Assembly: GCA_022711715.1 (NCBI GenBank)
Contig: JAKLEC010000001.1
Span: 112,860 to 176,859 of the forward strand
Length of the DNA stretch: 64,000 nucleotides
Reading direction: 5' to 3'
Origin: Acidobacteriota bacterium
GTDB taxonomy: Bacteria; Acidobacteriota; Aminicenantia; UBA2199
Part shown: in pieces, positions 820-39,340 of the stretch
Numbering within the stretch: the first letter of the stretch is position 1
Layout: every line of letters starts with the position of its first letter
The notes under the pieces: model-generated
The model's input: only the letters and a program-made list of their open reading frames with translations
Told to the model about the DNA's origin: nothing
The model's database searches: none
Made by a program: the position numbers and the translations under genes

Positions 820-1305
820 ATGAATGAACTGTACAGCGTCCACTCCCTGATCCGCGGCTTCGCCTACGAAGGAACGACGTACGAGGAGGTGAAGGTCGCC
901 TGGTTCGTCGCCGGGCGCGCCGCCCCGCTCGTCCCCTTTGAACAGGCCATCCAGGACTGCACCCGCCTCTCCGCCAGCGAGCGCGCTTTCCCCGAGGGCT
1001 ACGTCCGCGAGTTTTTCGGCCGCGAAGAGGCGCAGGCGCTGAAGGCCTACCTGGATCGCCGCCGCGAACTGACGACCTTCATCGAGCCCGTCGAGTTGCC
1101 GGTCATGGCCAACGCCAGCGGCTGCCGGAGGCTGCCGCGCGGCCACGGCGCCGACTTCCTGGCCCTGCACCGCGAGAAGGGATACTCCCTGCCGTTCAAG
1201 GTCGAGGGCTATTTCAGCGTGCGCCTGGCGGCTCCCCGCGTGCAGGGCGACGACCGCCGGACGGAAATCGCGGCAAGGGCTGCCAAAAAATCGAGTGACA
1301 AGTGA
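820..1305 (+). CDS. Hypothetical protein, 161 aa, no family recognised
   Basis: ATG preceded by GAGAGGA. GC3-rich codons. TGA stop lies inside a GAGTGAC heptamer array. Sigma54-like motif about 60 nt upstream. Confidence 0.6.
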   Translation: MNELYSVHSLIRGFAYEGTTYEEVKVAWFVAGRAAPLVPFEQAIQDCTRLSASERAFPEGYVREFFGREEAQALKAYLDRRRELTTFIEPVELPVMANASGCRRLPRGHGADFLALHREKGYSLPFKVEGYFSVRLAAPRVQGDDRRTEIAARAAKKSSDK

Positions 1306-1326
1306 CGAGTTATGAGTGACGAGGCA
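1292..1326. repeat. GAGTGAC-type heptamer array (4-5 units)
   Basis: gagtgac aagtgac gagttat gagtgac gaggcat. TGA occurs at 1296, 1303, 1313 and 1317, covering all three frames. Contains the stop codon of CDS 820-1305. Confidence 0.85.
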
Positions 1327-1337
1327 TAAAAAGACTA

Positions 1338-1427
1338 ATCGATCGTAATTCGTGATTCGGTAGAAAAACAGCGACGGAGCGAACTATTGCTGTTGCGAAT
1401 TACGAATTACGCCTTACGAATTACGAT
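1338..1427. repeat. CGTRATT-armed hairpin element, copy 1
   Basis: atcgatCGTAATTCGTGATTCGg - core aaaaACAGCGAcggagcgaactatTGCTGTT - gCGAATTACGAATTACGccttACGAATTACGat. Confidence 0.9.
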
Positions 1428-1429
1428 GC

Positions 1430-1924
1430 TTACTGCTCGATGCCGCCGAAATCGTCGTCCGACAGCGACTCGAACCAGCGGTCGATGCGCTCCTGGCCGG
1501 TGAGGCAGTTGCTGAACACGTCGGCCAGCACCGACGTCTCCAGCACCTGGCGGGAAACGTAGATCTTGGCGTGGTTCTTGAGCGCCAGCGCTACGGCGTC
1601 GGAGGGACGGCAGTCGATCACCCGCTCCTGGCCGTTCTTCTCGATGTGCAACTCGGCGTAATAGGTGTTCTCGACGATATCGGTGATGATGACCTTGGCC
1701 AGGATGGCCTCCAGGTCGCGCATGATGTTGCGCAGCAGGTCGTGGGTCATGGGCCGGGGCGAGCAGATGTTCTCCAGCTCCATGGCGATGGCATTGGCCT
1801 CGTTCATGCCGATCCAGATGGGGATGACCTTCTTCTCGTCGCGGGCCTTGAGCATCATCACTGGCGACTTGGAAACCTGGTCCATGATCAGGCCGACGAG
1901 GTTGACTTCGATGAACGGTTCCAT
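1430..1924 (-). CDS. Bifunctional nuclease family protein (BFN/DUF151)
   Basis: Matches the BFN pattern (VIPIWIGMNEANAIAMELE...PRPMTHDLL...RPSDAVALAL). ATG at 1924 is preferred over the in-frame GTG at 1933 because a TTGACA-17-TATATA promoter ends at 1935. Confidence 0.85.
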   Translation of the reverse strand: MEPFIEVNLVGLIMDQVSKSPVMMLKARDEKKVIPIWIGMNEANAIAMELENICSPRPMTHDLLRNIMRDLEAILAKVIITDIVENTYYAELHIEKNGQERVIDCRPSDAVALALKNHAKIYVSRQVLETSVLADVFSNCLTGQERIDRWFESLSDDDFGGIEQ

Positions 1925-1934
1925 GTTCCCCACT

Positions 1935-1963
1935 TATATAGTATCAATTCGCGGTTTTGTCAA
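1935..1963 (-). promoter_or_regulatory. Sigma70-type promoter TTGACA-17-TATATA for the BFN nuclease gene
   Basis: Minus strand reads TTGACAaaaccgcgaattgatacTATATA. The -10 box ends 10 nt before ATG 1924, giving a very short leader. Confidence 0.6.
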
Positions 1964-2023
1964 TTTGGAAGGAAACAAGCGGTCGTGACGGTGGCAGCGG
2001 TAGAAGAGGCATTGACTGAAGCG

Positions 2024-2117
2024 ATCGCAATTCGTAAGGCGCAATTCGTAATTCGCAACAGCGATAGTTCGCTCCGTCGCTGTTTTTCTGCCGAATCGCG
2101 AATTCCGATCAATCGAT
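2024..2117. repeat. CGTRATT-armed hairpin element, copy 2 (inverted relative to copy 1)
   Basis: Reverse complement of 1338-1427 aligns with about 6 mismatches and one small indel over about 90 nt (hand alignment). Confidence 0.9.
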
Positions 2118-2127
2118 TTTCCTGATT

Positions 2128-2156
2128 CGTCACGCGTCACGCGTTTCGCGTCACGA
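2128..2156. repeat. GTCACGC heptamer array (complement of GCGTGAC), 4 units
   Basis: gtcacgc gtcacgc gtttcgc gtcacga. Contains the mazG stop codon on the minus strand. Confidence 0.85.
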
Positions 2157-2930
2157 TGGCTCGGTCAGCTCCGTCTTGGACCTCTGCCACAGCGCCTCCA
2201 TCTCCGCCAGCGAGGCGGAGGCGACGTCCCGGCCGCCGCGGCGCAGCTCGGCCTCGATGAAGCGGAAGCGGGCGGTGAACTTGCGGTTGGCGCGCGCCAA
2301 AGCGAACTCGGGGTTGATGTCCAGCAGCCGCGCCACGTTGGCCACGGCGAACAGCAGGTCGCCGACCTCGTCCTCGGCCGCATGGCGGCGGCCGGCGGCG
2401 ATCTCGGCGCGCAGCTCGGCGCACTCCTCGGCGACCTTCTCCAGCGCCTGCCCGGCGTCGCCCCAGTCGAAGCCGACCCCCGAGGCCTGCGAGGCGATGC
2501 GCTTGGCCAGCAGCAGCGCCGGCATGGAGGCCGGGTAATCGGAGATGACGCTGGCCTTGTTTTTCTCGGCGATCTTGATTTTCTCCCAGTTGGCCTTGAC
2601 CTCGTCGGCGTTGTCGACCTTCGTCCCGGCAAAGATATGCGGGTGGCGGCGCACCAGCTTCTCGACGATGCCGGCGGCGACGTCGTCGATGGTGAAGCGT
2701 CCCTCCTCGGCGGCGATCTGGGACAGGAAAACGATCTGCAGCAGCAGGTCGCCCAGCTCCTCGCGCACGGCCCGCGGGTCGTTGCCGTCGATGGCCTCGA
2801 GCAGCTCGTGAGCCTCTTCCAGGACGTACTCCTTGAGCGAGGCGGGGGTCTGCTTCAGGTCCCAGGGGCAGCCGCGCTTGGGATGGCGCAGCTTCTTCAT
2901 GACGGCGACCAGGCGGTTGAACGGCTTCAT
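2151..2930 (-). CDS. mazG: Nucleoside triphosphate pyrophosphohydrolase MazG
   Basis: Two MazG repeats (EEAHELLEAI, GDLLLQIVF; EECAELRAEI, GDLLFAVANV). ATG 2930 chosen because the upstream ATG 2966 lies inside the predicted -10 box. Stop lies inside a GCGTGAC array. Confidence 0.9.
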   Translation of the reverse strand: MKPFNRLVAVMKKLRHPKRGCPWDLKQTPASLKEYVLEEAHELLEAIDGNDPRAVREELGDLLLQIVFLSQIAAEEGRFTIDDVAAGIVEKLVRRHPHIFAGTKVDNADEVKANWEKIKIAEKNKASVISDYPASMPALLLAKRIASQASGVGFDWGDAGQALEKVAEECAELRAEIAAGRRHAAEDEVGDLLFAVANVARLLDINPEFALARANRKFTARFRFIEAELRRGGRDVASASLAEMEALWQRSKTELTEPS

Positions 2931-2961
2931 GGCGGTGTCCCCCGCAGCGCGGGGAAGCGAT

Positions 2962-2990
2962 ATCATAGCCCGGAACGGCCCTTATGGCAA
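2962..2990 (-). promoter_or_regulatory. Sigma70-type promoter TTGCCA-17-TATGAT for mazG
   Basis: Read on the minus strand. About 30 nt upstream of ATG 2930. Confidence 0.5.
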
Positions 2991-3015
2991 GGGCAGCAGA
3001 TCTGTCCACAATGCT

Positions 3016-3225
3016 CGTGGCAAGTGACGCGTGACGAGCGACAAGTAGCAGCACGGGAACGAGCGATCGTAATTCGTGATTCGTAATTCGTGATTCGGAA
3101 CGGCAATAGTTCGGCTCATGCTGTTCCTAACACAAACACGAACCCGAACACGGAGAAAGGCTTTTCCCGCCCTCTCTTCCCTCATTCCTCCCTCCCTCTT
3201 CCCTTTATTTTCCCTGTGATTTTGA
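3016..3225. repeat. Composite mosaic: GTGAC array - linker - CGTRATT array - AACGGCAATAG core - CACAAA/CACGAA array - CTTCCC-rich arm
   Basis: Read directly from the sequence. The first four modules are colinear with 46067-46237. Confidence 0.85.
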
Positions 3226-3250
3226 ATCTGGAACTCCCCTGTGGTATAGT
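3222..3250 (+). promoter_or_regulatory. Sigma70-type promoter TTGAAT-17-(TGg)TATAGT, leaderless configuration
   Basis: The -10 box ends at 3250 and the ATG is at 3258. Confidence 0.55.
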
Positions 3251-3257
3251 GGGGTCC

Positions 3258-3536
3258 ATGGCCAAGGGGATCGCTTATCCGGAGCAACGGGACATCCGCG
3301 CCGTCATCATCCTGCTCGCCACCCAGGGGATGATCCGCCTGGGCGAGATCCCCGACCCGCTCAGCGGCCAGCCCGCCCTTGACGCCGACGGGGGGCGCTT
3401 CTTCATCGACCTGCTCGAGGAGCTCAAGCGCAAGACGGCGGGCAACCTGCTTCCCCAGGAAGCGGCCTTCCTTGACGACGTGCTGGGCAACCTGCGCCAG
3501 GTGCTGGCGCGCAAGACGGAGGCCGCCCGTGGCTAG
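3258..3536 (+). CDS. DUF1844 domain protein
   Basis: DUF1844-like sequence (LATQGMIRLGEIPDP...FFIDLLEELKRKTAGNL). ATG begins 7 nt after a TGgTATAGT extended -10, so this is a leaderless candidate. Confidence 0.75.
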   Translation: MAKGIAYPEQRDIRAVIILLATQGMIRLGEIPDPLSGQPALDADGGRFFIDLLEELKRKTAGNLLPQEAAFLDDVLGNLRQVLARKTEAARG

Positions 3537-5304: not shown

Positions 5305-6280
5305 GGGCACGCTGCGCGAGTTCAAGGTCCCGGACATCCTGCAGCTCATCTCGCTGCAGAAGAAGACCGGCATCCTGACCTTCAACAGCCAGGAAGGCTT
5401 CATCACCCTCATCTTCGAGGACGGCTACATCATCGGCATCGACGCCTTTCCCAAGAAGCTGGAGATGCGCGTGGGCAACGTCTTCGTCAAGCAGGAGATC
5501 ATCAGCGAGGAGATGCTGCAGCGGGCGCTGGCCATCCAGAAGCGCACCAGCCAGAAGGTCGGCGAGATCCTCATCGGCATGGGGCTGATCGACGAGAAGA
5601 TCATCCCCGAGGTGCTCAAGATCCAGGCCACGCAGATCGTGCTGTCGCTGTTCAACTGGAAGAAGGGCGAGTACAACTTCAAGGTCCTGGACTACGTCGA
5701 CAAGGAGCTGCGCCTGTTCACCCCCATCGCCGTCGACAACCTGATCATGGAAGGGGTGCAGATGCTCGACGAGTGGCCGCTGATCAAGAAGGCCATCCCG
5801 TCGGAGGACATCGTCTTCGAGCCGGTGTTCCTGGGCAGCAAGAAGGTCGCCCTGGTTTCGGAGTACGACGACGAGGCCCCCGCCGGGGACGGCAACACCC
5901 TGCACATGACCGAGACCGAGGTCAACCTGCTCAAGCACATCAACGGCCGCAACTCGGTCCGGGACATCGTCGAGCTGGGGCAGTTCACCGAGTACAAGGT
6001 CTACAAGACCCTGTACAACCTCCTCAACAAGGGGCTGATGAAGAAGAAGGTGAAGACCGAGATCCAGGAGATCGAGGAGCGCAAGCGCTTCGAGGACCTG
6101 GAGCAGGAGAACGCCCGCAAGTGCGGCCTGATCGGCCGGCTGCTGCTGGCGGCGCTGGCCCTGCTGCTGTTGCTCACCTTCTTCACGCCGCTGCGCCCCT
6201 TCCGCCGCGACAACATGCTCTTGCGGGCGCCGGAGTACCGCCAGCGCCTGCCCCTCTCCCTGCCTCGCGCCGAGCGATGA
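5294..6280 (+). CDS. DUF4388 (PatA-N-like) domain protein with C-terminal TM segment
   Basis: N-terminus FKGTLREFKVPDILQLISLQKKTGILTF is typical of DUF4388. ATG 5294 overlaps the upstream stop. Confidence 0.75.
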   Translation: MAFKGTLREFKVPDILQLISLQKKTGILTFNSQEGFITLIFEDGYIIGIDAFPKKLEMRVGNVFVKQEIISEEMLQRALAIQKRTSQKVGEILIGMGLIDEKIIPEVLKIQATQIVLSLFNWKKGEYNFKVLDYVDKELRLFTPIAVDNLIMEGVQMLDEWPLIKKAIPSEDIVFEPVFLGSKKVALVSEYDDEAPAGDGNTLHMTETEVNLLKHINGRNSVRDIVELGQFTEYKVYKTLYNLLNKGLMKKKVKTEIQEIEERKRFEDLEQENARKCGLIGRLLLAALALLLLLTFFTPLRPFRRDNMLLRAPEYRQRLPLSLPRAER

Positions 6281-7179: not shown

Positions 7180-7246
7180 CAAGCCGGCGCTTTTTTGTTA
7201 CAGTTTTCCTAAGCCTTTCCCGAACCCGACACCAGGAGCCACCACC

Positions 7247-14599: not shown

Positions 14600-14784
14600 C
14601 TATCGTGACGCGTAACGCGTGACGCGTGACGCGGAACAGCCTGAGCCTGATCACCAAAGAGTGCAGCCATCAAATCAAAGAGGGTAATTCTGCAGATAAT
14701 TTTTCAGGAAACTTTATAGATTACAAGAATAGATCTTCCTTTTGCTGCTACTTGTCACGCGTCACGCGTTACGCGTCACGATAG
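14600..14784. repeat. Perfect 31-bp inverted repeat of GCGTRAC heptamers enclosing a 123-nt AT-rich insert
   Basis: 14600-14630 ctatcgtgacgcgtaacgcgtgacgcgtgac is the exact reverse complement of 14754-14784. The right arm contains the stop of CDS 14776-15951. Confidence 0.95.
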
Positions 14785-18069: not shown

Positions 18070-18123
18070 GGCGTTCTTGTAACAGAAAAGAAGGCCTGGG
18101 TCAATCGCAGGGCTTTCAGGAAA

Positions 18124-18214
18124 GTGATAGTGGTAGTGATAGTGATAGTAACAGCATCAACGGCAATTTGTGTTAGTGTTTGTGTTAGGAACAGCAATAA
18201 GAGAGCAGCTCTTT
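18124..18214. repeat. GTGRTA array - AACAGCA junction - GTGTTN array - GGAACAGCAATAAG core
   Basis: gtgata gtggta gtgata gtgata (18124-18150). gtgtta gtgttt gtgtta gg (18170-18189). Confidence 0.85.
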
Positions 18215-18231
18215 CCGAAACTAGTAGGACT

Positions 18232-18513
18232 AAAGCACCAAGTTCCAAGCATCAAATTCCAAATAAACGCCAAGCACCAATGACCAAATAACCAAAACCA
18301 AGAAAAGTGATTGTGATAGTGTTAGTGTTTGTTAGTGCACTCAAACGATTTCTAATGGAATTATGAGATCAATAGAATGTATTTATGACCGAAACTCAAT
18401 TCATCTAAAGGCAAATTGAAGAGCCCTTTACATTGTTCTAAAGAGGATTTCGTTGCGGGTTTTTCCTAACACTATCACTAACACCATCACTTTCTTTGGT
18501 GCTTGGTGCTTGG
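18232..18513. repeat. Nested hairpin: CACCAAG-type and GTGWTA-type arms around an AT-rich insert of about 125 nt
   Basis: Outer arms caccaagttccaagc...gccaagcaccaa (18236-18305) versus ctttggtgcttggtgcttgg (18493-18513). Inner arms gtgattgtgatagtgttagtgtttgttagtg (18307-18337) versus cctaacactatcactaacaccatcac (18465-18490). Confidence 0.8.
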
Positions 18514-18562
18514 AATTTTAATCTTACGAGTATCTGACCTTGACTAAAATCCGCGATGAGCC

Positions 18563-18599
18563 AAAAAAGCCGGGCCGGCGCCCGAGGCGCCGGCCCGGC
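18563..18599 (-). terminator. Intrinsic terminator after the Yip1 gene
   Basis: 14-bp GC stem (GCCGGGCCGGCGCC / GGCGCCGGCCCGGC) followed by U6 on the minus strand. Confidence 0.85.
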
Positions 18600-19305: not shown

Positions 19306-19357
19306 ACCTAAGTGTTCGTGTTAGTGGTAGTGTTAGTAGAGGGCAATAGCAAATCTC
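19306..19357. repeat. GTGTTN/GTGGTA array plus GGGCAATAGCAAAT core-like junction
   Basis: cctaa gtgttc gtgtta gtggta gtgtta gtag agggcaatagcaaatctc. Confidence 0.75.
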
Positions 19358-19461
19358 TTTTTTTACAAACCCGGATTCATCGACACATTGAATCTCAATA
19401 TGGATTTTTTTGCTATTTCCTTTGCCGTGCATCGTTCATAAAAGGTATTTTACTTTTGCTT

Positions 19462-19700
19462 CACCATACGCCGTATGCCGTACGCCGTGCGCCAAGGGCA
19501 TTTTCCTCTTTCATCACCGTATGCCGTATGCCGTACGCCCAGGGCATTTTCCTCTTTCATCACCGTACGCCGTATGCCGTACGCCCAGGGCATTTTCCTC
19601 TTTCTTCACCGTACGCCGTATGCCGTACACCGTGCGCCCAGGGCATTTTCCTCTTTCTTCACCGTACGCCGTATGCCGTACGCCGTGCGCCCAGCTCTCC
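19462..19700. repeat. Tandem repeat, 4.5 copies of a 46/53-bp unit (GCCGTAY heptamers + CAGGGCATTTTCCTCTTTCWT)
   Basis: Copies at 19462-19514 (53 nt), 19515-19560 (46), 19561-19606 (46), 19607-19659 (53) and 19660-~19700 (partial). The length difference is exactly one heptamer. Confidence 0.92.
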
Positions 19701-19782: not shown

Positions 19783-20793
19783 ATGACCTTCGCCTATCCG
19801 CATCTGCTGTGGCTGCTGCTGTTGCTCGTGCCGTTCACCGGCCTGGTCATCTACAATTTCAGGAAGAAAAGGCAGCTATTGCGCGCGTTCATATCCGACG
19901 CGGCGCAGGCGCGGACGGTGGTGCGCTCCGGCCGCGAGATCGACTTCTTCAAGTCGGCGCTGCTGCTGGCCGCCCTGACCTTCCTCATCCTGGCCCTGGC
20001 TCGGCCGCAATGGGGCGAGCGCTACGAAACCCTGGACATCCGCGGCCTGGAGATCGTCTTCCTGCTCGACACCTCGGCCTCGATGAACGCCGAGGACCTG
20101 CCGCCCTCGCGGCTGGAGGTGGCCCGCAACCTGGTGGCGGCCGTCGTCGACGCCCTGCGCACCGACCTGGTCAGCCAGGTCAACTTCGCCGGCTCGGCCT
20201 ACGTGCAGTGCCCGCCCACCCTGGACTACGAGGCTTTCAAGCTGCTGGCCCTGGCCTCGCAGCCCAGCCCGCCCGAGGAGCAGGGCACCGACCTGGGCAA
20301 GGCCTTCACCCTGGGGCTGCGCCTGTTCCGCGACTCCCGCTCCAGCCGCCGGGTGATGATTTTGGTCACCGACGGCGAGGACCAGGAGGGAGCCTGGCCG
20401 GAGGCGGTGCGCGAGCTGCAGAAGCGCGGCATCGCCGTGTTCACCGTGGGCGTCGGCGCCGCCGGCGGCGCCCCCATCCCGCTGCGCGACGCGGAAGGGC
20501 GCACCAGCGGCTGGAAGAAGGACAAGCAGGGGCGCATCGTCAAGTCGCGGCTGGACGAGGAGACCCTGGCGCGCATCGCCGCCGACTGCAACGGCCAGTA
20601 CTACCGCCTGGGCGACGCCGCCGGCATCGCGCCCATGGTGGGCATCCTGCGCGCCTACGAGCGCCGCGAGCTGGCGCGCAAGGTCAAGAGCCGCAAGATC
20701 GACCGCTACGCCTATCCCCTGCTGCTGGCCGTCGCCCTGCTGGTCGCGGAGATGGCCCTCAGCGACCGGAGGATCGCATGGCGCCGGGGCTGA
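19783..20793 (+). CDS. batA: VWA domain membrane protein, BatA/BatB-like
   Basis: N-terminal TM segment. MIDAS motif DTSASM. Gene order with BatC/D/E-like genes. Confidence 0.8.
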   Translation: MTFAYPHLLWLLLLLVPFTGLVIYNFRKKRQLLRAFISDAAQARTVVRSGREIDFFKSALLLAALTFLILALARPQWGERYETLDIRGLEIVFLLDTSASMNAEDLPPSRLEVARNLVAAVVDALRTDLVSQVNFAGSAYVQCPPTLDYEAFKLLALASQPSPPEEQGTDLGKAFTLGLRLFRDSRSSRRVMILVTDGEDQEGAWPEAVRELQKRGIAVFTVGVGAAGGAPIPLRDAEGRTSGWKKDKQGRIVKSRLDEETLARIAADCNGQYYRLGDAAGIAPMVGILRAYERRELARKVKSRKIDRYAYPLLLAVALLVAEMALSDRRIAWRRG

Positions 20794-26146: not shown

Positions 26147-26254
26147 CACTTGTCACTCAGCTCGAAAATCTATCGCTGCTTCTCGTCATGCGTCACGATA
26201 GATGGATCTGTTACTGTTTCGAGTCACGAATCACGAATCACGAATTACGATAGC
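26147..26254. repeat. Degenerate array mosaic (GTCAC-type and CACGAAT-type units)
   Basis: cacttgtcactcag...ctcgtcatgcgtcacgatag...gagtcacgaatcacgaatcacgaattacgatagc. Confidence 0.7.
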
Positions 26255-26259
26255 TCTTA

Positions 26260-26619
26260 CTATTTCAGCGGCTCATTAAAAGGTATCGCCCGCGCCGGGG
26301 CGCGGTCGCTGCAATCGGCCACCAGGCGCAGGTAATCGGCGGGCGGCCGCGGGATTTGTATGCCCAGCTCGTGGGGCTTGTTCTCGAGCTCCCCGCTGTA
26401 CTCGTGGGTCCAGCGCACCACGCCGTCGAGGAAAATGGAGTCGCTGGCTATGGCCAGGGCGATGCGCACCTTGCGGTTGTCCTCGGGGCGGTGCATGCAC
26501 TGGATGCCGATGCCGTGCTGCGAGACATCCTGCGTGAATCCCGGGTGCATCTCGTCGCCGCACTTGCAGATGATCAACTTCCGGAAAGGTACGCGCTTCT
26601 CCTCCCTTTTCTTGATCAT
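26260..26619 (-). CDS. PilZ domain protein
   Basis: PilZ-like pattern REEKRVPFR...DVSQHGIGI. Confidence 0.6.
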   Translation of the reverse strand: MIKKREEKRVPFRKLIICKCGDEMHPGFTQDVSQHGIGIQCMHRPEDNRKVRIALAIASDSIFLDGVVRWTHEYSGELENKPHELGIQIPRPPADYLRLVADCSDRAPARAIPFNEPLK

Positions 26620-28788: not shown

Positions 28789-28819
28789 AGTCCCGGCCGG
28801 CGGCAAAGACGGAAAACAA

Positions 28820-28963
28820 GTGATAGTGGTAGTGGTAGTGATAGTAGCGAGCACGAAAATGCCCTATAGGAAAGTGCTATTCGGATGTTTCCCATGATAC
28901 CAACAAGGTCTTATTAGGTCGGCACATGCAGTTCCTACCACTACCACTATCACTACCACTAAG
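28820..28963. repeat. GTGRTA / TAYCAC inverted arrays enclosing an 86-nt insert
   Basis: Left arm gtgatagtggtagtggtagtgatagtag (28820-28847). Right arm cctaccactaccactatcactaccactaag (28934-28963). Confidence 0.88.
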
Positions 28964-29078: not shown

Positions 29079-30284
29079 ATGAAGATACTGGTCATCAATT
29101 GCGGGAGTTCGTCGATCAAGTTCCAGCTGCTCAACATGGAAACGGGGCAGGTCCTGGCCAAGGGCCTGCTGGAGCGCATCGCCATCCCCGGCTCGGTGCT
29201 GAACTACTACCAGGGCGAGACCAAGCACGTCGTCAACCGCAACGTGGCCAATCACGAGGAGGGAGTGCAGCTCATCGTCAGCCTGCTCACCGACCCCGCC
29301 AAGGGCGTCATCCGCGACAAGAGCGAGATCTTCGCCATCGGCCACCGCGTGGTCCACGCCGGCGAGAAGTTCAACGGCACCGTACCCATCACCCCGGCCG
29401 TGCTGGCCGCGCTCAAGGAGTGCATCCCGCTGGCGCCGCTGCACAACCCGCCCAACATCACCGGCATCGAGGCCTGCCAGAAGATCCTGCCCGGCATTCC
29501 CATGGCCGGCACTTTCGACACCGCCTTCCACCAGACCATGCCGGAGAAGGCCTACATATACCCCCTGCCCTACGAGTACTACCGCGAGCACAAGATCCGC
29601 CGCTACGGCTTCCACGGCACCTCGCACTTCTACGTGGCCAAGCAGGGGGCCAAGGCCATGGGCCGCAGGCTGGAGGAGCTGAAGATCATCACCTGCCACC
29701 TGGGAAACGGCTCGTCGATGGCCGCCATTCGCAACGGCGTCTCGGTCGACACCTCGATGGGCTACACGCCGCTGGAGGGGCTGCCCATGGGCACGCGCTG
29801 CGGCGACCTCGACCCGGCCATCCCGCTGGTGCTGCAGCGCACGCTCGGGCTGAGCGGCGAGCAGGTCGACGCCGTGCTCAACCGCAAGAGCGGCATGCTG
29901 GGCATCTCCGGCGTCTCCTCCGACATGCGCGACATCAACGACCAGGCCGCCGCCGGCCATGCCCAGGCCCGGCTGGCGCTGGAGATCTTCGCCTACCGCA
30001 TCAAGAAGTACATCGGCGCGTACATCGCCGCCATGAACGGCGCGGACCTGGTCATCTTCACCGCCGGCATCGGCGAGCGCGGCCGCAGGGAACGCGAGCT
30101 GATCCTGAGCGACATGGAGTTCCTGGGCATCGAGTTCGACGCCGCGGCCAACCATGAGGCCTTCGGCAGGCTGGGAACCATCTCCAAGCCCGGCTCGCGC
30201 GTCCGCGTCATGGTCGTGCCCACCAACGAGGAGCTGGAGATCGCCGAGCAGACGCTGAAGGTCATTCAAAACAACAAGAAATAG
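29079..30284 (+). CDS. ackA: Acetate kinase
   Basis: MKILVINCGSSSIKFQL N-terminus and full-length AckA similarity. TAG stop is the first unit of a (TAGTGA)n array. Confidence 0.97.
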   Translation: MKILVINCGSSSIKFQLLNMETGQVLAKGLLERIAIPGSVLNYYQGETKHVVNRNVANHEEGVQLIVSLLTDPAKGVIRDKSEIFAIGHRVVHAGEKFNGTVPITPAVLAALKECIPLAPLHNPPNITGIEACQKILPGIPMAGTFDTAFHQTMPEKAYIYPLPYEYYREHKIRRYGFHGTSHFYVAKQGAKAMGRRLEELKIITCHLGNGSSMAAIRNGVSVDTSMGYTPLEGLPMGTRCGDLDPAIPLVLQRTLGLSGEQVDAVLNRKSGMLGISGVSSDMRDINDQAAAGHAQARLALEIFAYRIKKYIGAYIAAMNGADLVIFTAGIGERGRRERELILSDMEFLGIEFDAAANHEAFGRLGTISKPGSRVRVMVVPTNEELEIAEQTLKVIQNNKK

Positions 30285-30400
30285 TGATAGTGATAGTGTT
30301 AGTGTTAGGAACAGCAATAGCAGAACTTTTTTCATCCTGACACGTTTCGGATCAGGGGCTTTCACTTTTACCTTTTTCCTTTTACCTTTTGCCTTTTGCC
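30282..30400. repeat. (TAGTGA)n / GTGTTA array - GGAACAGCAATAG core - CTTTTNC heptamer array
   Basis: The array starts with the ackA stop codon. cttttac ctttttc cttttac cttttgc cttttgc at 30361-30400. Confidence 0.85.
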
Positions 30401-30482: not shown

Positions 30483-30678
30483 GCTCGGCGTACGGCTGAC
30501 GGCATACGGCAACAGCACGTCTGCGATAGATAGCGCTGCGCAACTAGTGACGGACAAATTACCTCAGCGTATGGCTTTGACAATCTTGGATTGAAAAACT
30601 CATCGAAATTCAGGATTGCGCAGCAATGTCCCACTTTGGCTTTACCGTACGCCGTATGCCGTACGCCGTATGCCAAGC
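30483..30678. repeat. GCCGTAY-type hairpin element (filled form, insert of about 120 nt)
   Basis: Left arm gctcggcgtacggctgacggcatacggcaacagc. Right arm ggctttaccgtacgccgtatgccgtacgccgtatgccaagc. Inner 9-bp inverted repeat gctgcgcaa (30534) / ttgcgcagc (30616). Confidence 0.85.

Positions 30679-33858: not shown

Positions 33859-33862
<4 letters not shown>
31058..33862 (+). CDS. Sensor histidine kinase: PDZ-like domain, polytopic membrane region, GAF, PAS, HisKA, HATPase
   Basis: PDZ-like GQVRPGDILLAVN. About 8 TM helices. H-box AHEINTPL. G-box GTGLGLAI. Confidence 0.9.
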
Positions 33863-35204
<1,342 letters not shown>

Positions 35205-35208
<4 letters not shown>

Positions 35209-36080
35209 GGGAAATCAAGCTGCAGAGGTTCCTCCAGGAATGCGGCGTGGCCAGCCGCCGCGACATCCGCCGCTGGATCCACGAGGGGCGCTTCCAGGTG
35301 GCGGGCCGGGCCGTGACCGACCCCAACCACCCGGTGCGCCATCCCGGCGACGAGGTGCGTCTCGACGGCCGGCCGCTGCGGCGGGCGCCGCAGGCGCGGA
35401 GCTACTTCATCCTCAACAAGCCGGCCGGGGTCGTCTCCACCCTGTCCGATCCCGAGGGGCGGCCGACAGTCGCCGCCCTCATCCGCCGCATCCGCGAGCG
35501 CGTCTTCCCGGTGGGGCGCCTCGACTTCCACTCCGACGGCCTGATGCTGCTGACCAACGACGGCGAGCTGGCCAACTTCATCCTCTCGGCGCGCAACGGC
35601 GTGCCCAAGACCTACCTGCTCAAGATCAAGGGCGAGCTGTCCGAGGCCGAGCGCGGCAAGCTGGAGCGCGGCTTCGTCCTGGAGGGCGAGCGTCTCAACC
35701 CCTTCGTCATCGAGCCGCAGAGCCGCACCAGCGCCGGCAACTCCTGGCTGCGCGTGACCATCACCGAGGGCAAAAAGCATATCCTGCGCAAGGCCTTCCA
35801 GTTCTCGGGCCACCCGGTGGAAAAGCTGCGCCGCGTGGCCATCGGCGGCATCACCCTGGGCAAGCTGCCGCCGGGCGAGTGGCGCGAGCTGCGCGAGGAA
35901 GAGGTCGAGTCGTTCAAGCGCCAGTACCGCTTCAACGCACCGGCCTCAGGGAAGAAACAGGGAAGAATGAGGGAAGACAGAGGGGCTGGACTAGAAAACC
36001 TCTCGGTCCGTCGAGGTTCCACGTACCACGTACCACGTACCAAGTTGAAGACAAAGGCCTTTCCGCAGAGAACGAAGTGA
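35205..36080 (+). CDS. rluB: Pseudouridine synthase (RsuA/RluB family) with about 50-aa repeat-encoded C-terminal tail
   Basis: S4 domain and the catalytic GRLDFHSDGLMLLTNDG motif. The last about 150 nt read through a GGGAAG-rich repeat element. Confidence 0.85.
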
Positions 36081-36137
36081 GAAAGAAGTTCTGAAAATGC
36101 CTTTCCCACTCTCTCTTCCCTCTGTCTTCCCTTGAGA
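35947..36137. repeat. GGGAAG-type element with inserted CACGTAC x3 array; overlaps the rluB 3' end
   Basis: cagggaagaaacagggaagaatgagggaagacagagggg ... ccacgtaccacgtaccacgtacc (36019-36043) ... gtgagaaagaagttctgaaaatgcctttcccactctctcttccctctgtcttcccttgaga. Confidence 0.85.
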
Positions 36138-36160
36138 TGGGTGGTTCTCAGGTGTAGAAT
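36132..36160 (+). promoter_or_regulatory. Sigma70-type promoter TTGAGA-17-TAGAAT for paralog 1
   Basis: The -35 box is the terminal CTTCCCTTGAGA of the GGGAAG-type repeat. The same architecture occurs at 37205-37233. Confidence 0.5.
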
Positions 36161-36190
36161 GATCCCATGCACTGTCCCGAGGAGAATCTG

Positions 36191-37093
36191 ATGCGCCATA
36201 AAATCACGATCGGCGTTTTGGCACTGCTTCTGGGCATCCTGACCGCTCCCGCCCGCCTTCATGCCTCGGCCCCGCGCAACATCATCGTCTACTTCGAGTT
36301 CCTCGACAACGCCAACGGCATCGAGGAGGCCGTCTCCTTCCTGTTCGGGCGCATGCTGCGGCCCGGCGACCAGCTGATCGTGCAGTCGCCGGCCAGGACC
36401 TACGGCTTCTCGCCGGCCAGCCTGGGACGCTCCAAGGCCGAGCTGGCCGTCTCCCTGCAGGGCCGGCTGCGCGGCGACATTTCCCGCTCGGGCCAGGGCT
36501 ATAAGCAGGTCCTCCTGGACCTGGACGCGGCGGCGCTGGAGATCGCCGAGCTCGCCTACCCGACCGGCGTGGTGGACGCCAACAAGGACCTGGGCGAGAT
36601 GTTCATCCTCTACCGCCAGGGCCTGGCCAACCTGCGGCAGCTGCGCCAGGTGAGCGCCGCCTCGCTGCGCCGGCTCAGCGGCGCCTTCCAGGGCCAAAAG
36701 GGTGAAAACCACGTCATCGTCCTCTTCGAGCGCGAGTTCCGCCCCATCCCGCGCCGCGAGGCGCTGAACGCGCTGGCCGACATGCCCGCCTTCGCCATGA
36801 AGGCCAACGAGATGTTCTCCGCGACCGAGCTTGACCCGCCCTTTGACGTGCCAGCGCTGGCCGCTTTCTTCCGCGGCGTGCCGCTGACCCTGCACTTCGT
36901 CTACGTCACCTCCAAGAACACGACGATCGCCGGCAACCGCTTTGAGAGTTCGGGCGACATCTACTCCGCCTTCAGCAAGCTCGCCGAAGCCACCGGCGGC
37001 GTATGCGCGGCGACGGCAGAACCAAGGGACGGGCTGAAAGCGGTATTGAAGGCCTGGCAGGGCTCAAAATTGAGCGGATCCAGGGAAGAATGA
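36191..37093 (+). CDS. Secreted alpha/beta protein, tandem paralog 1 (VWA-like fold suspected, no MIDAS)
   Basis: GAGGAG SD 5 nt before ATG 36191. Signal peptide. Shares PRNIIV(Y/F)FE, GDQLI.QSP, QKGENH.IVLFEREFRP.PRREALN, VPLTLHFVYVT and ATGGVC with the two downstream genes. Confidence 0.8.
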   Translation: MRHKITIGVLALLLGILTAPARLHASAPRNIIVYFEFLDNANGIEEAVSFLFGRMLRPGDQLIVQSPARTYGFSPASLGRSKAELAVSLQGRLRGDISRSGQGYKQVLLDLDAAALEIAELAYPTGVVDANKDLGEMFILYRQGLANLRQLRQVSAASLRRLSGAFQGQKGENHVIVLFEREFRPIPRREALNALADMPAFAMKANEMFSATELDPPFDVPALAAFFRGVPLTLHFVYVTSKNTTIAGNRFESSGDIYSAFSKLAEATGGVCAATAEPRDGLKAVLKAWQGSKLSGSREE

Positions 37094-37210
37094 GGGAAGA
37101 CAGAGGGAAAGGCAGAGGGAAAATAAAGTGAGAAAGAGGTTCTGAAAAGGCCTTTCCCACTCTCTCTTCCCTTTCTCCTCCCTCACTCTTCCCTCTGTCT
37201 TCCCTTGAGA
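37081..37210. repeat. GGGAAG-type hairpin element (compact form)
   Basis: Purine arm 37081-37137, loop ttctgaaaagg, pyrimidine arm 37150-37210. Contains the TGA stop of paralog 1 and the -35 box of paralog 2. Confidence 0.9.
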
Positions 37211-37233
37211 TTCTTAATTCCTGGGTGTAGGAT
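37205..37233 (+). promoter_or_regulatory. Sigma70-type promoter TTGAGA-17-TAGGAT for paralog 2
   Basis: Homologous to 36132-36160, with conserved GGTGTAG(A/G)ATGATCCCA. Confidence 0.5.
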
Positions 37234-37262
37234 GATCCCATAAACTTCCCTAGGAGGCCCTG

Positions 37263-38153
37263 ATGCCCCGAAAATCTCCCGCCTTCATTCTCACCCTCAT
37301 CCTGTTCCTGGCCGCCCTGGCCGCCCCGTGCCGCCTGGCGGCTGCCGGGCCGCGCAACATCATCGTCTTCTTCGAGCTCCGCGATGATGTCGCCGGCGTG
37401 GAGAGCGCCGTGGAGACGGTTTTCGACAAGATGCTCGCGCCCGGCGACCAGCTCATCATCCAGTCGCCGGTCCGCGTCTACGGGTTCTCGGCGCAGACCC
37501 TAGCCCGGCCCAAGGCCGAGCTGGTCGCGGCCATCAACGACAAGCTGCGCGCCGACATCACCCGGGCGGCGCAGACCTACAAGCAGGTGATCGGCGAGCT
37601 CGAGACGGCGGCCCGCAACATCGCCAGCCTCGCCTACCCCGACCTCGAGTCGAGCGGCGCCCTGCCCGAGGTCCGCGACATGGGCGAGCTGTTCAACTTC
37701 TACCGCCAGGGGCTGGCCAACCTGGCCGTCCTGCGCAAGGCCAACGACGCCTCCCTGCGCCAGCTGGCCGGCGCCTTCCGCGGCCAGAAGGGCGAAAACC
37801 ATATTATCGTCCTCTTCGAGCGCGAGTTCCGGCCGGTCCCCCGGCGCGAGGCCTTGAACGTGCTGGCCGACATGCCCAAGATCGCCTTCCAAGCCAACGA
37901 GCTGTTCACCATCGGCAACCTGAAGGAACCCTTCGACGCCGACGCCCTGGCCGGGTTCCTCAAGGGAGTGCCGCTGACGCTCCATTTCGTCTACGTCACC
38001 GGCAAGACCACGTCGGCAACCGGCAACCTGCTGGAGAACTCGGGCGACGTCTATTCGGCGTTCAGCGAGGCGGCCCAGGCCACCGGCGGCGTGTGCACGA
38101 CGACCGCCGAGCCCAGCGATGGGCTGAAAACGATTCTTAAATCCTGGAAATAG
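37263..38153 (+). CDS. Secreted alpha/beta protein, tandem paralog 2
   Basis: AGGAGG SD, signal peptide, colinear with paralogs 1 and 3. Confidence 0.85.
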   Translation: MPRKSPAFILTLILFLAALAAPCRLAAAGPRNIIVFFELRDDVAGVESAVETVFDKMLAPGDQLIIQSPVRVYGFSAQTLARPKAELVAAINDKLRADITRAAQTYKQVIGELETAARNIASLAYPDLESSGALPEVRDMGELFNFYRQGLANLAVLRKANDASLRQLAGAFRGQKGENHIIVLFEREFRPVPRREALNVLADMPKIAFQANELFTIGNLKEPFDADALAGFLKGVPLTLHFVYVTGKTTSATGNLLENSGDVYSAFSEAAQATGGVCTTTAEPSDGLKTILKSWK

Positions 38154-38160
38154 AAAAGGG

Positions 38161-38261
38161 CTATCGTAATTCGTAAGGCGTAATTCGTGATTCGTAGCGG
38201 CAAAAGGCCGATCCGTTGCGGTTCTTTTTCCGAATTCCGAATTACGAATCACGAGTGATCG
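38161..38261. repeat. CGTRATT-armed hairpin element, copy 3
   Basis: ctatCGTAATTCGTaaggCGTAATTCGTGATTCGtagcggcaaaaggccgatccgttgcggttctttttcCGAATTCCGAATTACGAATCACGagtgatcg. Confidence 0.9.
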
Positions 38262-38325
38262 TCCTCCCTGTATTTATATTTGACAAAGGAGTATCATTCC
38301 ATCGAGACAATCCACAGGAGATGCC

Positions 38326-39237
38326 ATGCGACGCAAAAAATCGATTTCCCTGCTGGCCCTGTTCCTGGCACTGGCCGCCCTGGCCGTTCCCGCCCCGCTG
38401 CAGGCCGCCGGGCCGCGCAACATCATCGTCTTCTTCGAGTTCCGCGAAGTCACCGGCGGCGTAGATGCCGCTTTGGAGACGGTCTTCAACCGCATGCTCG
38501 GCCCCAGCGACCAGCTGATCATCCAGTCGCCGGCGCGGCTCTACGGCTTCTCGCCGCAGACCCTGGCCCGGCCCAAGACGGAGCTGATCGCCATGATGCA
38601 CGAGAAGCTGCGCGGCGACATCTCCCAGGCGGCGCAGAACTACCAGCAGGTCACCAAGGACCTGGAGATCGCCGTGCGCAACCTGGAGGGTTTCGTGATG
38701 CCTTCGGGGGTCCCCGAAGCCGGCGGCATGGGCGGCGGCAGGGAAACCCGGGACCTCAGCGAGCTCTTCAACGGCTACCGCCAGGGGCTGGACAACCTGG
38801 CCGTCCTGCGCAAGGTCAACGAGGCCGCATTGCGCCAGCTGGCCGGCGCCTTCCGCGGCCAGAAGGGAGAGAACCACATTATCGTCCTGTTCGAGCGCGA
38901 ATTCCGGCCGGTGCCGCGGCGTGAGGCGCTGAACATCCTGGGCGACATGCCCAAGTTCGCCTTCCAGGCCAACGAGCTGTTCACCATCGGCAACCTGAAG
39001 GAACCCTTCGACGGCGCCGCCCTGGCCGAGTTTTTCAAGGAGGTGCCGCTGAAGTTGCATTTCGTCTACGTCACCGGCAAGACCACGTCGGCAACCGGCA
39101 ATCTGCTGGAGAACTCGGGCGACGTCTACTCGGCCTTCAGCAAGGCGGCCCGGGCCACCGGCGGCGTGTGTGAGACCACGGCCGAGCCGGCGGACGGCTT
39201 GAAGGCGGTCATGAAGGCCTGGAAGGACGAAAAATAG
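38326..39237 (+). CDS. Secreted alpha/beta protein, tandem paralog 3
   Basis: AGGAG SD, signal peptide, colinear with paralogs 1 and 2. Confidence 0.85.
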   Translation: MRRKKSISLLALFLALAALAVPAPLQAAGPRNIIVFFEFREVTGGVDAALETVFNRMLGPSDQLIIQSPARLYGFSPQTLARPKTELIAMMHEKLRGDISQAAQNYQQVTKDLEIAVRNLEGFVMPSGVPEAGGMGGGRETRDLSELFNGYRQGLDNLAVLRKVNEAALRQLAGAFRGQKGENHIIVLFEREFRPVPRREALNILGDMPKFAFQANELFTIGNLKEPFDGAALAEFFKEVPLKLHFVYVTGKTTSATGNLLENSGDVYSAFSKAARATGGVCETTAEPADGLKAVMKAWKDEK

Positions 39238-39246
39238 CGGCAGAAG

Positions 39247-39340
39247 CGATCGTAATTCGTTAGACGTAATTCGTAATTCGTAACCGCAACAGATCGATCC
39301 GTTGCAGTTCCTCTTCCGAATTACGAATCAGGAGTGATCG
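39247..39340. repeat. CGTRATT-armed hairpin element, copy 4
   Basis: Same architecture and orientation as 38161-38261. Core ccgcaacagatcgatccgttgcag. Confidence 0.9.

Follow-up and report, generated by a model that had tools for sequence, protein, structure and literature searches.

Tandem heptamer and hexamer arrays at gene 3′ ends as probable arms of an intergenic palindromic repeat superfamily, with stop codons as a likely by-product

The short tandem arrays bordering genes in the 64,000-nt stretch of Acidobacteriota DNA analyzed here (the window) probably form the arms of intergenic palindromic repeat elements belonging to one superfamily, arms that are themselves built from tandem units of 6–7 nt. 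We likewise consider it probable that the "stop wall" such arrays can form is a permissive by-product, letting an arm type overlap gene ends cheaply, and no selected insulator. The original prediction had proposed a combined translational and structural insulator, or else elements targeting, or capturing, the 3′ ends of genes. Gene models are GC3-based calls made in this analysis, and the sample is this one 64-kb window.

Arrays of period 6 or 7 were intergenic in 49 of 52 cases in a window that is 11% non-coding, occurred in each of the 21 spacers that reach 100 nt, and covered about 23% of spacer DNA. Their median distance to a gene 3′ end was 11 nt, and no 5′ end lay closer than 30 nt (p = 1.4e-5). 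The elements are as follows.

674–789: hairpin of the CCGTAYG/GGCGTAC family (arms 674–707 and 756–789, TRF arrays; −64.6 kcal/mol), beginning 24 nt past the stop of an M17 peptidase gene, with zero stop triplets in three frames of both strands.
1292–1322, plus strand, direct reading: degenerate AGTGACR heptamer array, whose second unit supplies the TGA stop of CDS 820–1305.
1342–1427: ATCG-(TRATTCG)n hairpin containing an inner core; 2 nt separate the end of its 3′ arm from a bifunctional-nuclease gene's stop (1430–1432, minus strand).
2024–2157: inner hairpin of TRATTCG units (2024 to about 2100) and outer ATCG-TGACGCG arm (2128–2157, minus strand), the first TGA of which is the mazG stop (2151–2153).
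3019–3215, plus strand: non-palindromic series of GTGACGC-like units, ATCG-(TRATTCG)4 (3066–3097), a core hairpin (GGAACGGCAAT...TGCTGTTCC), AACACR hexamers (3129–3152) and CTCTTCC (3162–3215), an array order repeated at 46070–46294 and, inverted, at 54548–54887.
14602–14782: ATCG-(TGACGCG/TAACGCG)4 hairpin (41-nt arms, 90% complementary; −84 and −88 kcal/mol) filling the convergent rho–glycosyltransferase spacer; the rho stop is 17 nt upstream and the glycosyltransferase stop (14776–14778) is the first TGA in the minus-strand arm.
18120–18518: nested hairpins (inverted repeats) of AGTGRT/GTGTTA hexamers and AAGCACC/TTGGTGC heptamers; in the heptamer pair the stopless CA-rich arm comes first on the plus strand.
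19311–19694, plus strand: GTGTTA-type hexamer array (19311–19337), then five 46–53-nt units (19447–19694) of three CCGTAYG heptamers apiece.
26180–26251, minus strand: two consecutive ATCG-led arms, GTGACGC-type and (TRATTCG)4, facing only the PilZ gene, whose stop (26260–26262) is 8 nt off.
28819–28961: AGTGRT/CTACCA hexamer hairpin (26-nt arms, 88%) in a spacer between divergently transcribed genes (promoter side), with the ackA promoter downstream of it.
30281–30400, plus strand: composite of (TAGTGA/TAGTGT) hexamers (30281–30308), the first TAG of which serves as the ackA stop, together with core GGAACAGCAAT and CTTTTRC heptamers (30360–30400).
30486–30674: CCGTAYG-family hairpin (inverted repeats) preceding a conserved promoter and free of stops on either strand.
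35948–36132: purine-rich/pyrimidine-rich hairpin (inverted repeat; AGGGAAGAAAG, period 11); the pseudouridine-synthase ORF 35205–36080 runs across the hairpin's 5′ arm as well as a CCACGTA array before terminating in the loop at 36078–36080.
37082–37205: second AGGGAAG-type hairpin (inverted repeats), at the TGA of whose second unit ORF 36218–37093 ends.
38163–38262: ATCG-(TRANNCG)4 hairpin, 9 nt past the stop of 37263–38153, with the next start 63 nt on.
39249–39470: two successive TRANNCG hairpins (39249–39340 and 39375–39470), the first starting 11 nt past the stop of 38326–39237.
46070–46294, plus strand: series of ATCG-TGACGCG, TRATTCG, core GCAACAGCAAT, AACACR and CTACCA filling a convergent spacer, 7 nt and 16 nt from the flanking stops; its first 85 nt give a 76% alignment with a locus (L095) in an Aminicenantes MAG.
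48689–48875: AGTGRT/CTACCA hexamer hairpin; the stop of 48892–51153 is 16 nt away.
51261–51456: hexamer arrays, core and CTTTTRC/CTTTTCA heptamers, coming on the minus strand after a canonical intrinsic terminator (51463–51492).
54548–54887: six arrays in one long series, among them ATCG-(TGACGCG)3 on the minus strand at 54755–54777, downstream of a terminator (54913–54940).
57987–58414: hexamer arrays of two kinds, GTGTTA and TAGTGA, together with a GTCACGC remnant; the CCGTAYG arrays here end 12 nt from the stop of a prolyl-oligopeptidase gene.
60642–61027: 2.9 copies of a 129–136-nt unit, each comprising a GGCGCAA/CCGTAYG hairpin and a stem rich in GC (GGGCGGCC...GGCCGCC).

The commonest element type reads ATCG-(T-R-A-N-N-C-G)2-4-G(G/C)AACAGCAAT, followed by a loop and then the mirror image. 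The ATCG-(TRANNCG)n arms, or other arms of 6–7-nt units, are often attached to the common core given above for 30281–30400, and further arm types (AGTGRT, GTGTTA, CCGTAYG, CTTTTRC, AAATTCC and AGGGAAG) are joined to it or stand in fixed series. With at most one mismatch, ATCGTRANNCGTRANNCG was matched 22 times against 0.04 expected, and the core GRAACAGCAAT 8 times against 1.04. Folding energies of the hairpins run from −23 to −95 kcal/mol, whichever strand is taken. Could the arrays be plain replication-slippage microsatellites, arisen in situ in the AT-richer spacers of a high-GC genome and lacking any element identity? Heptanucleotide repeats are reported to be the most abundant class of long simple sequence repeats in many bacteria (Mrazek 2007), and strains differ in copy number by whole units. 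We nevertheless regard this as very improbable, because the arrays are flanked by the ATCG leader and the core, identical units occur at about 20 sites within 64 kb and again in distant genomes whose GC content is very different, arms are as a rule paired and inverted, and an entire hairpin can be present or absent as one unit; the common termini and core are hard to reconcile with it.

On re-reading the sequence, all coordinates in the original prediction were correct, including TGA at 1296, 1303, 1313 and 1317 (phases 0, 1, 2 and 0), and the five stops it placed within repeat arrays are true ends of well-supported genes: 1303–1305 (a CDS with no Pfam match), 2151–2153 (MazG, PF03819), 14776–14778 (Glycos_transf_1), 30282–30284 (Acetate_kinase, PF00871) and 37091–37093. 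To these we add a sixth, the pseudouridine-synthase stop at 36078–36080 within a hairpin element, so that 6 of 44 genes end inside arrays; those at 37091 and 36078, however, lie in an 11-nt-period purine array and not in heptamers. Such endings had been expected to exceed chance, but against a rotation null for the window 6 were observed and 8.5 expected (P = 0.90); stops within 26 nt of arrays were marginally in excess (17 against 12.8, P = 0.04).

The arithmetic of the proposal is sound: a stop-bearing 7-nt period supplies every frame with a stop in the space of 21 nt, and at 14602–14782 a three-frame-closing arm is indeed met first from either strand. MacGregor (2015; PMC4679880, section 9) had already published the same arithmetic with respect to TAACTGA repeats, treating it as a limit on repeat placement rather than a function. 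That heptamer arrays have been selected as three-frame walls which, with their hairpins, insulate neighbors from read-through or frameshifted translation is, in our estimation, improbable. In the 90 nt past stops in the window, stop triplets number 4.4 on the sense and 2.2 on the antisense strand (p = 0.002), an enrichment that selection for stops predicts; their density is 0.060 per nt in arrays versus 0.038 in the remaining spacer; and position 2 of the unit is only G or A, every variant still being TGA or TAA. Closure of three frames past stops is likewise found on the sense strand in 10 of 22 cases and on the antisense in 1 of 22, but 8 of the 10 belong to one element superfamily and are therefore not independent. 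The stop content of the units is also at chance: among intergenic heptamer arrays, three frames are closed on one strand in 9 of 31, at least two frames in 16 of 31 and no frame on either strand in 7 of 31, whereas for random heptamer arrays with the base composition of the spacers the rate of three-frame closure on one strand or both is 50%. Hexamer arrays close a single frame. Across 606 units the triplets were TGA in 378, TAA in 204, TGG in 2 and TAG in none, and the absence of TAG indicates that what is conserved is T-R-A as a motif and not "stop-ness". Families without stops on either strand (CCGTAYG; GTTCGAC in L003) and those of polarity opposite to that predicted, presenting a stopless arm first (AAATTCC/AAGCACC; CAAATCA in L124), lie equally near stops; one ORF passes straight through the 11-nt-period arm; two of the four TAA units in the 2024–2058 arm have decayed to CAA relative to strain L200; and in co-directional spacers of a low-GC lineage arrays favor the stopless sense, 47 to 14.

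Between strains with about 99–100% identity in coding DNA, one entire hairpin is present or missing, an arm differs by two heptamers, the mazG spacer is rewritten and blocks of arrays are replaced. Strain L200 is without the entire 96-nt element of 674–789 (junction CTTG|GCCGAG); this sole insertion/deletion junction has a microhomology of just 2 nt, so that transposition of the elements is at most putative. The array at 1292–1322 is kept in strains L200, L201, L204 and L205, the 5′ arm of 1342–1427 is two heptamers (14 nt) longer in L204, and the 2024–2157 spacer is strongly diverged in L200 and L201, in which mazG, at the same length, ends ...LTGLS* (CTATCGTGA) versus ...LTEPS* in the window. 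Other spacers, such as 2931–3248, are stable between strains, 3019–3215 being nearly identical in L200 and L201. Strain L212 has other arrays in place of 18120–18518 next to a conserved intrinsic terminator (18563–18599), and fewer copies at 19311–19694, a region different in sequence in L211; independent short-read assemblies break inside arrays, e.g., 28819–28961. Had an array replaced the native stop? The ackA orthologs in L121–L123 have array-free spacers of about 160 nt, are without the 30486–30674 hairpin, and end at the identical codon, so the ancestral stop position was retained. Glycosyltransferase length is equal in the window, L002 and L003, and the window and L002 have CTATCGTGA in common with differing arm units. 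The element terminus (C)TATCGTGA coincides with the last 2–3 codons and stop of both mazG and the glycosyltransferase.

Under the by-product explanation that we favor, elements would change by unit slippage, gain or loss of whole hairpins and wholesale replacement between elements, and would persist only where harmless, from a stop codon to the next promoter or across convergent spacers, thus coming to lie directly against gene 3′ ends or to reach a few codons into them. An abutted or invaded ORF would then end at its first in-frame stop, at most 21 nt into T-R-A-bearing heptamers and possibly much further into other arm types. ORF 36218–37093 has about 10 extra codons relative to the ends of its two paralogs, the pseudouridine-synthase ORF about 45, through the 11-nt-period arm, and SerRS in L040 has 5 extra codons into an element. 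The proposal that elements target or capture 3′ ends thus survives in part: elements abut stops, and at least two ORFs (36218–37093 and SerRS) have been lengthened. Element anatomy and positions, strain-level variability and the stop statistics are direct results, whereas how the elements spread, and any role of their hairpins as 3′-UTR structures to be melted by the terminating ribosome, are inferred. Weighing against the by-product explanation are the stop-enriched sense strand past stops, the occurrence of the same unit with its ATCG leader in genomes of 36–67% GC from differently labeled phyla, the 2-nt microhomology of the sole junction and the stability of some spacers between strains. 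No transposase or other mobilizing gene was identified.

Within the unit, T1, A3 and G7 hardly vary, and G and A share position 2 at 2:1 in all three GC groups; the persistence of this pattern across phyla argues for recognition of a specific sequence, something left unexplained by a model that is purely selfish or neutral. The ATCGTGACGCG array recurs in MAGs labeled Aminicenantes and Bacteroidales and in the low-GC lineage, with an identical 18-mer in more than 116 loci of MAGs spanning 36–67% GC; in the low-GC lineage arrays end 17–27 nt before the start codons of unrelated housekeeping genes, just upstream of the Shine-Dalgarno sequence, paralleling TAACTGA repeats. HutP binds UAG-N4 repeats and TRAP binds G/UAG-N2-3 repeats, and (TRANNCG)n could be read in the same manner, one conserved triplet per 7 nt, by an oligomeric nucleic-acid-binding protein exerting post-transcriptional control at gene boundaries, the stops being incidental. 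All of these features would suit such binding sites, but we consider them unlikely to be the explanation: one genome carries many unrelated unit families, so one protein cannot account for all; orientation to transcription varies by lineage; arrays are gained, lost and replaced among strains while flanking genes are unchanged; and hairpin pairing would occlude single-strand binding. In their behavior the palindromic elements resemble REP and MITE elements, from which their arms of 6–7-nt tandem units set them apart.

Reading the sequence bears out the TGA triplets at 1296, 1303, 1313 and 1317 given as an example in the original prediction of a three-frame stop wall; they fall in phases 0, 1, 2 and 0. 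The five stop codons that had been placed inside repeat arrays are likewise confirmed: in our gene model (44 genes, from our own GC3-based calls in this one 64-kb window) each is the true end of a solid gene.

CDS 820-1305: stop within an array
MazG gene (mazG; PF03819): stop within an array
Glycosyltransferase gene (Glycos_transf_1): stop within an array
ORF 36218-37093: stop within an array
Acetate kinase gene (ackA; PF00871): stop within an array

To these we add a sixth in-array stop, at 36078-36080, which ends an S4/pseudouridine-synthase gene within a hairpin element. This gene, 35205-36080, had been regarded as a paralog of the next three genes, an assignment we reject. The description of 14602-14782 also stands, in that either strand meets a three-frame-closing arm first.

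Are stops found within arrays more often than the abundance of arrays predicts? A census with TRF (period 6 or 7, at least 2.8 copies) gave 52 arrays in the window, 49 of them intergenic although intergenic DNA makes up 11% of the window; each of the 21 spacers that reach 100 nt contains arrays, which cover ~23% of spacer DNA overall. The nearest array lies at a median of 11 nt from gene 3' ends (17 of 22 within 26 nt, with 6 overlapping an array), whereas start codons are all at least 30 nt from any array (Mann-Whitney p = 1.4e-5 versus 3' ends). When the array mask of each spacer was rotated, the mean expectation was 8.5 overlapped stops against the 6 observed (P = 0.90), and thus in-array stops are no commoner than array density predicts; under the same null, 17 stops lie within 26 nt of an array against 12.8 expected (P = 0.04). 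The non-random feature is that arrays avoid starts and promoters.

Closure of all three frames is also a common property of heptamers, since random ones (spacer composition, 50% GC, 30-nt arrays) achieve it on at least one strand in 50% of cases. Among the 31 real heptamer arrays, nine close three frames, seven close two, eight close one and seven close none, and a hexamer array can close one frame at most. What favors an insulator is the 90 nt 3' of stops, where the sense strand carries 4.4 stop triplets versus 2.2 for the antisense (Wilcoxon p = 0.002), and where three frames are closed in 10 of 22 cases in the sense direction versus 1 of 22 in the antisense. Eight of those ten cases belong to one superfamily with a symmetric hairpin, however, so they do not represent independent choices of orientation. 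We conclude that the stop-wall idea adds little: its arithmetic property has already been published and the statistics of the window are at chance.

It had also been proposed that arrays capture gene ends, replacing the native stop, and here the outcome differs between genes. For ackA there was no replacement. Four orthologs (78-87% identity) have no arrays, and three of them, L121-L123, in which only ~160 nt separate ackA from the downstream gene, end at the same codon as the window (...K-stop, one also with TAG), from which it follows that the ancestral stop was kept and the hexamer array merely starts there. In a further ackA ortholog (L124; 72% identity, GC 0.49), CAAATCA/ACAAACC heptamers and their complement form a hairpin right after the TGA stop, and the arm following the stop is stopless and CA-rich, so a relative of lower GC and greater distance shows the phenomenon too, in a different unit family and with the polarity reversed. 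Element terminus and gene end do coincide in the mazG and glycosyltransferase genes, over the last two or three codons and the stop. The glycosyltransferase C-terminus ...EVLQLS-stop (CAGCTATCGTGA) is common to the window and an orthologous locus, L002, the arm units 3' of the gene being TGACGCG in the former and TRATTCG in the latter, while a second ortholog, L003, ends at the same length in ...EVLAGR-stop (TAG) with a stopless GTTCGAC hairpin clear of the gene. MazG ends in ...LTEPS-stop in the window and ...LTGLS-stop (CTATCGTGA) in two near-identical strain contigs (L200 and L201), again at equal length.

Other ORFs run on into arrays. ORF 36218-37093 extends ~10 codons past the ends of its two paralogs to an array TGA, and the pseudouridine-synthase ORF (RluB/RsuA-like) has ~45 added codons through a purine-rich arm and a CCACGTA array, homology to solved RluB stopping near residue 250. 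In a Bacteroidales locus, L040, an array adds five codons to a 430-codon ORF whose C-terminal sequence reads as that of a seryl-tRNA synthetase.

The arrays form the arms of hairpin elements 90-400 nt long. Read from outside on either strand, the arm is (c/t)tATCG-(TRANNCG)2-4-G(G/C)AACAGCAAT, and ATCGTRANNCGTRANNCG with at most one mismatch has 22 matches versus 0.04 expected. A single unit occurs in two variants, as TGACGCG/TAACGCG arms and as TRATTCG arms. Further arm families (AGTGRT, GTGTTA, CCGTAYG, CTTTTRC, AAGCACC/AAATTCC and an 11-nt AGGGAAG type) attach to a common core, GRAACAGCAAT (8 matches versus 1.04 expected), or keep a fixed order, as at 3019-3215, 46070-46294 and, inverted, 54548-54887. 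The inverted arms are 26-46 nt long and 76-90% complementary, and folding energies range from -23 to -95 kcal/mol, the two strands folding equally well. Folding of 20 hairpins on both strands gave no consistent strand preference in energies or G-U counts, and none that followed the direction of transcription; on RNA-level selection of the transcribed strand through G-U wobble asymmetry, folding gives evidence neither way. The elements do not resemble intrinsic terminators, as the CGAT(A/G) that closes their 3' arms is not followed by a run of T and most have no U tract, and canonical terminators occur separately from them at 18563-18599, 51463-51492 and 54913-54940. An Rfam scan of the 64 kb at the gathering threshold and a tRNA scan of the window gave no match.

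Several details of the units deserve mention. At 3067-3097 and 30645-30674 there is a perfect 14-nt super-period (100% TRF match at period 14) in which TAATTCG alternates with TGATTCG or CCGTACG with CCGTATG, so that neighboring units differ by one transition. The TGACGCG unit (14602-14782 and all such arms) is a 6-bp palindrome, ACGCGT, plus one base, and consequently the two arm orientations differ solely by G versus C at one position; CCGTACG (CGTACG) and the GTTCGAA of L003 (TTCGAA) are built likewise. Element termini often read GCGATCG, with CGATCG at 1340, 3064 and 39247, and 2021-2028 reads GCGATCGC, which is identical to the cyanobacterial HIP1 octamer. Larger tandem units are also present: five of 46-53 nt at 19447-19694, upstream of gene 19783-20793, each made of three CCGTAYG heptamers and CAGGGCATTTTCCTCTTTCATCA, and 2.9 copies of a 129-136-nt unit at 60642-61027, between two minus-strand genes, in which a GGCGCAA/CCGTAYG hairpin comes first and a GC-rich stem second (GGGCGGCC-TCGG-GCCGC). 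A tandem paralog pair of sulfatase-TPR proteins (46311-51153; 753 aa each) has near-identical array arrangements downstream. Two large minus-strand genes at 51521-57827 (945 and 953 aa) are taken as a second tandem paralog pair on the basis of a C-terminal coding sequence common to both (TCAGTTGAACTC at either stop) and their similar length; 51521-54358, the member of this pair that was scanned, is TonB-dependent-receptor-like. Paralog duplications may have copied elements as well.

Comparison of strain contigs with identical neighboring proteins and ~99-100% identical coding DNA revealed considerable variation in the elements. L200 is without a whole 96-nt CCGTAYG hairpin (junction CTTG|GCCGAG), L204 has two additional heptamers in one arm, and the mazG-nuclease spacer has been rewritten between strains, two of four units being CAA in the arm of the window versus TAA in L200. 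Beyond the Yip1 terminator, itself conserved, L212 has wholly different arrays, and the 46-53-nt repeat preceding gene 19783-20793 is reduced in copy number there, in a region in which L211 also differs. The spacer at 2931-3248 is stable between strains, and a second genome, L216 (GCA_035390365.1), shows no difference from the window across 6.2 kb. Independent Logan/ENA short-read contigs of this organism from other samples (L218-L223, L213-L215) end exactly inside hexamer or heptamer arrays or the GGAACAGCAA core, at the window equivalents of 28819, 30310 and 18500, which identifies the arrays as assembly breakpoints.

The elements are not confined to this genome. In a species-representative genome collection the 18-mer ATCGTGACGCGTRACGCG occurs at no fewer than 116 loci; among the matches listed, with taxon labels as deposited, these comprise:

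Aminicenantes/Aminicenantia MAGs: 62-67% GC
High-GC MAGs labelled Clostridia: same repeat repertoire
Bacteroidales, Prolixibacteraceae and Porphyromonadaceae MAGs: 41-55% GC
Four Vulcanimicrobiota/Synergistia MAGs: 36-40% GC
A few intragenic, apparently chance matches

In a search for orthology between the window and the high-GC array-bearing loci, the repeats match and the genes do not. The repeat repertoire held in common suggests that the window is of Aminicenantia-like origin, an assignment made from repeats and not from marker genes. A single viral contig holds the 18-mer, and for this reason we reject a phage-borne signal.

In the low-GC lineage (L005-L119, MAGs labelled Vulcanimicrobiota ER1/ER2/CTOTU7676 and Synergistia SRP239243_co1_332), 17-27 nt separate the ATCG end from the start of a gene on the other strand among the matches listed, such that the mRNA would read (CGCGUCA)nCGAU-SD-AUG, with the array just upstream of the Shine-Dalgarno and stopless in sense. 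The adjacent genes are unrelated housekeeping genes (AtpD, PanB, FtsW, UvrB and a response regulator, as read from N-terminal sequences), and in co-directional spacers among the matches listed the stopless strand is sense in 47 cases versus 14 for the stop-bearing strand. Several array copies in this lineage form part of larger repeated units, e.g., AGAAATAAC...ATCG(TGACGCG)nAGGATGATAACCGTTCTAACAATTTGCC. Of 10 upstream genes on the array's strand in Bacteroidales, 8 terminate at -21, -14, -7, -1, 0, +1, +4 or +6 from ATCG, all three phases occurring among the matches listed. Hairpins of the opposite polarity, in which a stopless AAATTCC/AAGCACC arm comes first, are found in five Aminicenantes-type loci and in the window at 18233-18518.

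A logo of 606 units from 152 arrays, with conservation somewhat overstated owing to the walking rule by which units were gathered, has T1, A3 and G7 near-invariant, with G:A at ~2:1 in position 2 in all three GC groups. The triplets are TGA in 378 units, TAA in 204, TTA in 12, TCA in 9 and TGG in 2, and TAG in none. Even with inflated conservation, the zero for TAG argues for a conserved motif and against selection for any stop.

What, then, are these elements? The best-supported reading is that they are hairpin repeats with microsatellite arms that behave like REPs or MITEs. Such elements would survive in the sole dispensable space, directly after stops, and an ORF touching one would terminate wherever it first meets a stop in frame; the closure of three frames by T-R-A heptamers (R being G or A) would then make overlap with gene ends cheap without being the purpose of the arrays. 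A more ambitious reading, which we think improbable, is that ATCG-(T-R-A-C-G-C-G)n and the arrays related to it are horizontally spread cis-elements, recognized sequence-specifically, that mark gene boundaries in several unrelated lineages, a candidate protein or mobilization machinery reading one T-R-A per 7 nt and the invariant triplet doubling as a three-frame stop that would let the element dock on ORF ends. On this reading the marks would lie directly at stops in Aminicenantia-like and Bacteroidales genomes and ~20 nt before starts in the low-GC lineage. The sequence-specific reader, be it a protein or mobilization machinery, is nevertheless the most interesting reading that remains, if a long shot.

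We see practical consequences. For annotation, repeat elements can set gene ends in such genomes, so that C-terminal residues may derive from an element and vary between strains, as exemplified by mazG (...EPS versus ...GLS), the glycosyltransferase (...QLS versus ...AGR) and the tails of 36218-37093 and the pseudouridine synthase. For assembly, short-read contigs break at arrays. For biology, an identical heptamer array with its leader is found in genomes of 36-67% GC under different phylum labels, among the matches listed, and the ATCG-led array is a concrete motif with which to seek the machinery responsible.

A close precedent is the intergenic TAACTGA heptamers of marine Beggiatoaceae, cyanobacteria and Bacteroidetes, whose forward repeats translate as LITDN-stop and so overlap CDS ends by at most 18 nt, a limit treated as a factor controlling repeat distribution (MacGregor, 2015; PMC4679880). 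Those too are tandem heptamers of 2-6 copies, patchy across phyla, whose unit holds both TAA and TGA, and all-frame stops limit the overlap with CDS ends here as well (7, 14 and 21 nt). Many TAACTGA repeats lie just upstream of starts, like the TGACGCG arrays of the low-GC lineage at 17-27 nt, the sole place where we find such proximity; in the window, arrays hug stops, and starts are not approached. The units also differ (TGACGCG, TAACGCG, TRATTCG and others, with an ATCG leader), many other unit families coexist here, and TAACTGA repeats are, as reported, direct repeats without predicted structure, whereas the window arrays are inverted pairs forming long hairpins. Cyanobacterial STRRs, of heterocystous species, are tandem heptanucleotides (e.g., CCCCAGT) with several unit families per genome, found in non-coding DNA only. 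Our arrays share all three traits, but their units and taxa differ (labels of related loci include Aminicenantes and Bacteroidales), and STRRs are not known to share the ATCG leader or core, nor are hairpin arms a defining STRR trait. Mycobacterial MIRUs, operon-oriented intergenic tandem repeats of 46-101 bp thought to allow translational coupling, have reading frames that overlap the flanking stop and start codons, so that the repeat supplies gene ends, as here; they have neither hairpin arms nor 7-nt units.

REP/BIME elements and REPINs of gamma-proteobacteria are multicopy extragenic imperfect palindromes (PMC3116915; bioRxiv 10.64898/2026.03.23.713779). The elements of the window are the same in this respect, as they are in the conserved tetranucleotide at the hairpin foot, in being located for the most part immediately past gene ends, within or close to the 3' UTR, and in varying between strains. 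E. coli REPs near stop codons reportedly affect translation of the upstream gene, a finding ascribed to Liang, Rudd and Deutscher in 2015. The differences are that arms here consist of tandem 6-7-nt units, that the terminal tetranucleotide is ATCG and not GTAG, and that elements span 90-400 nt; the Pfam scans run within the window gave no transposase match, and no RAYT (TnpA-REP) is linked to the elements. Like MITEs, they have terminal inverted repeats and vary in presence or absence, the 96-nt hairpin missing from L200 being the example, and the sole junction available has a 2-nt GC overlap, as explicable by deletion microhomology as by target-site duplication.

For multicopy heptanucleotide elements of Geobacter metallireducens, a role as regulator sites or as RNA elements has been suggested (PMC2700814). 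These likewise form families, with 4-5 heptamers in tandem at dozens of intergenic positions, some paired on opposite strands, but with consensus units GGACCGG and MTYCTGA, and an ATCG leader or shared core is not described there. Arrays bound by the ring-shaped oligomers HutP and TRAP carry a conserved triplet at a fixed 5-7-nt period, to which the periodic T-R-A seen in our sequences may be analogous. Among the papers searchable in full text, none contains the array sequences, and searches on Aminicenantes with tandem repeats and on later TAACTGA work returned nothing relevant. The heptamer array with its ATCG leader, of which we found no published description, extends the unexplained phenomenon of TAACTGA repeats and STRRs.
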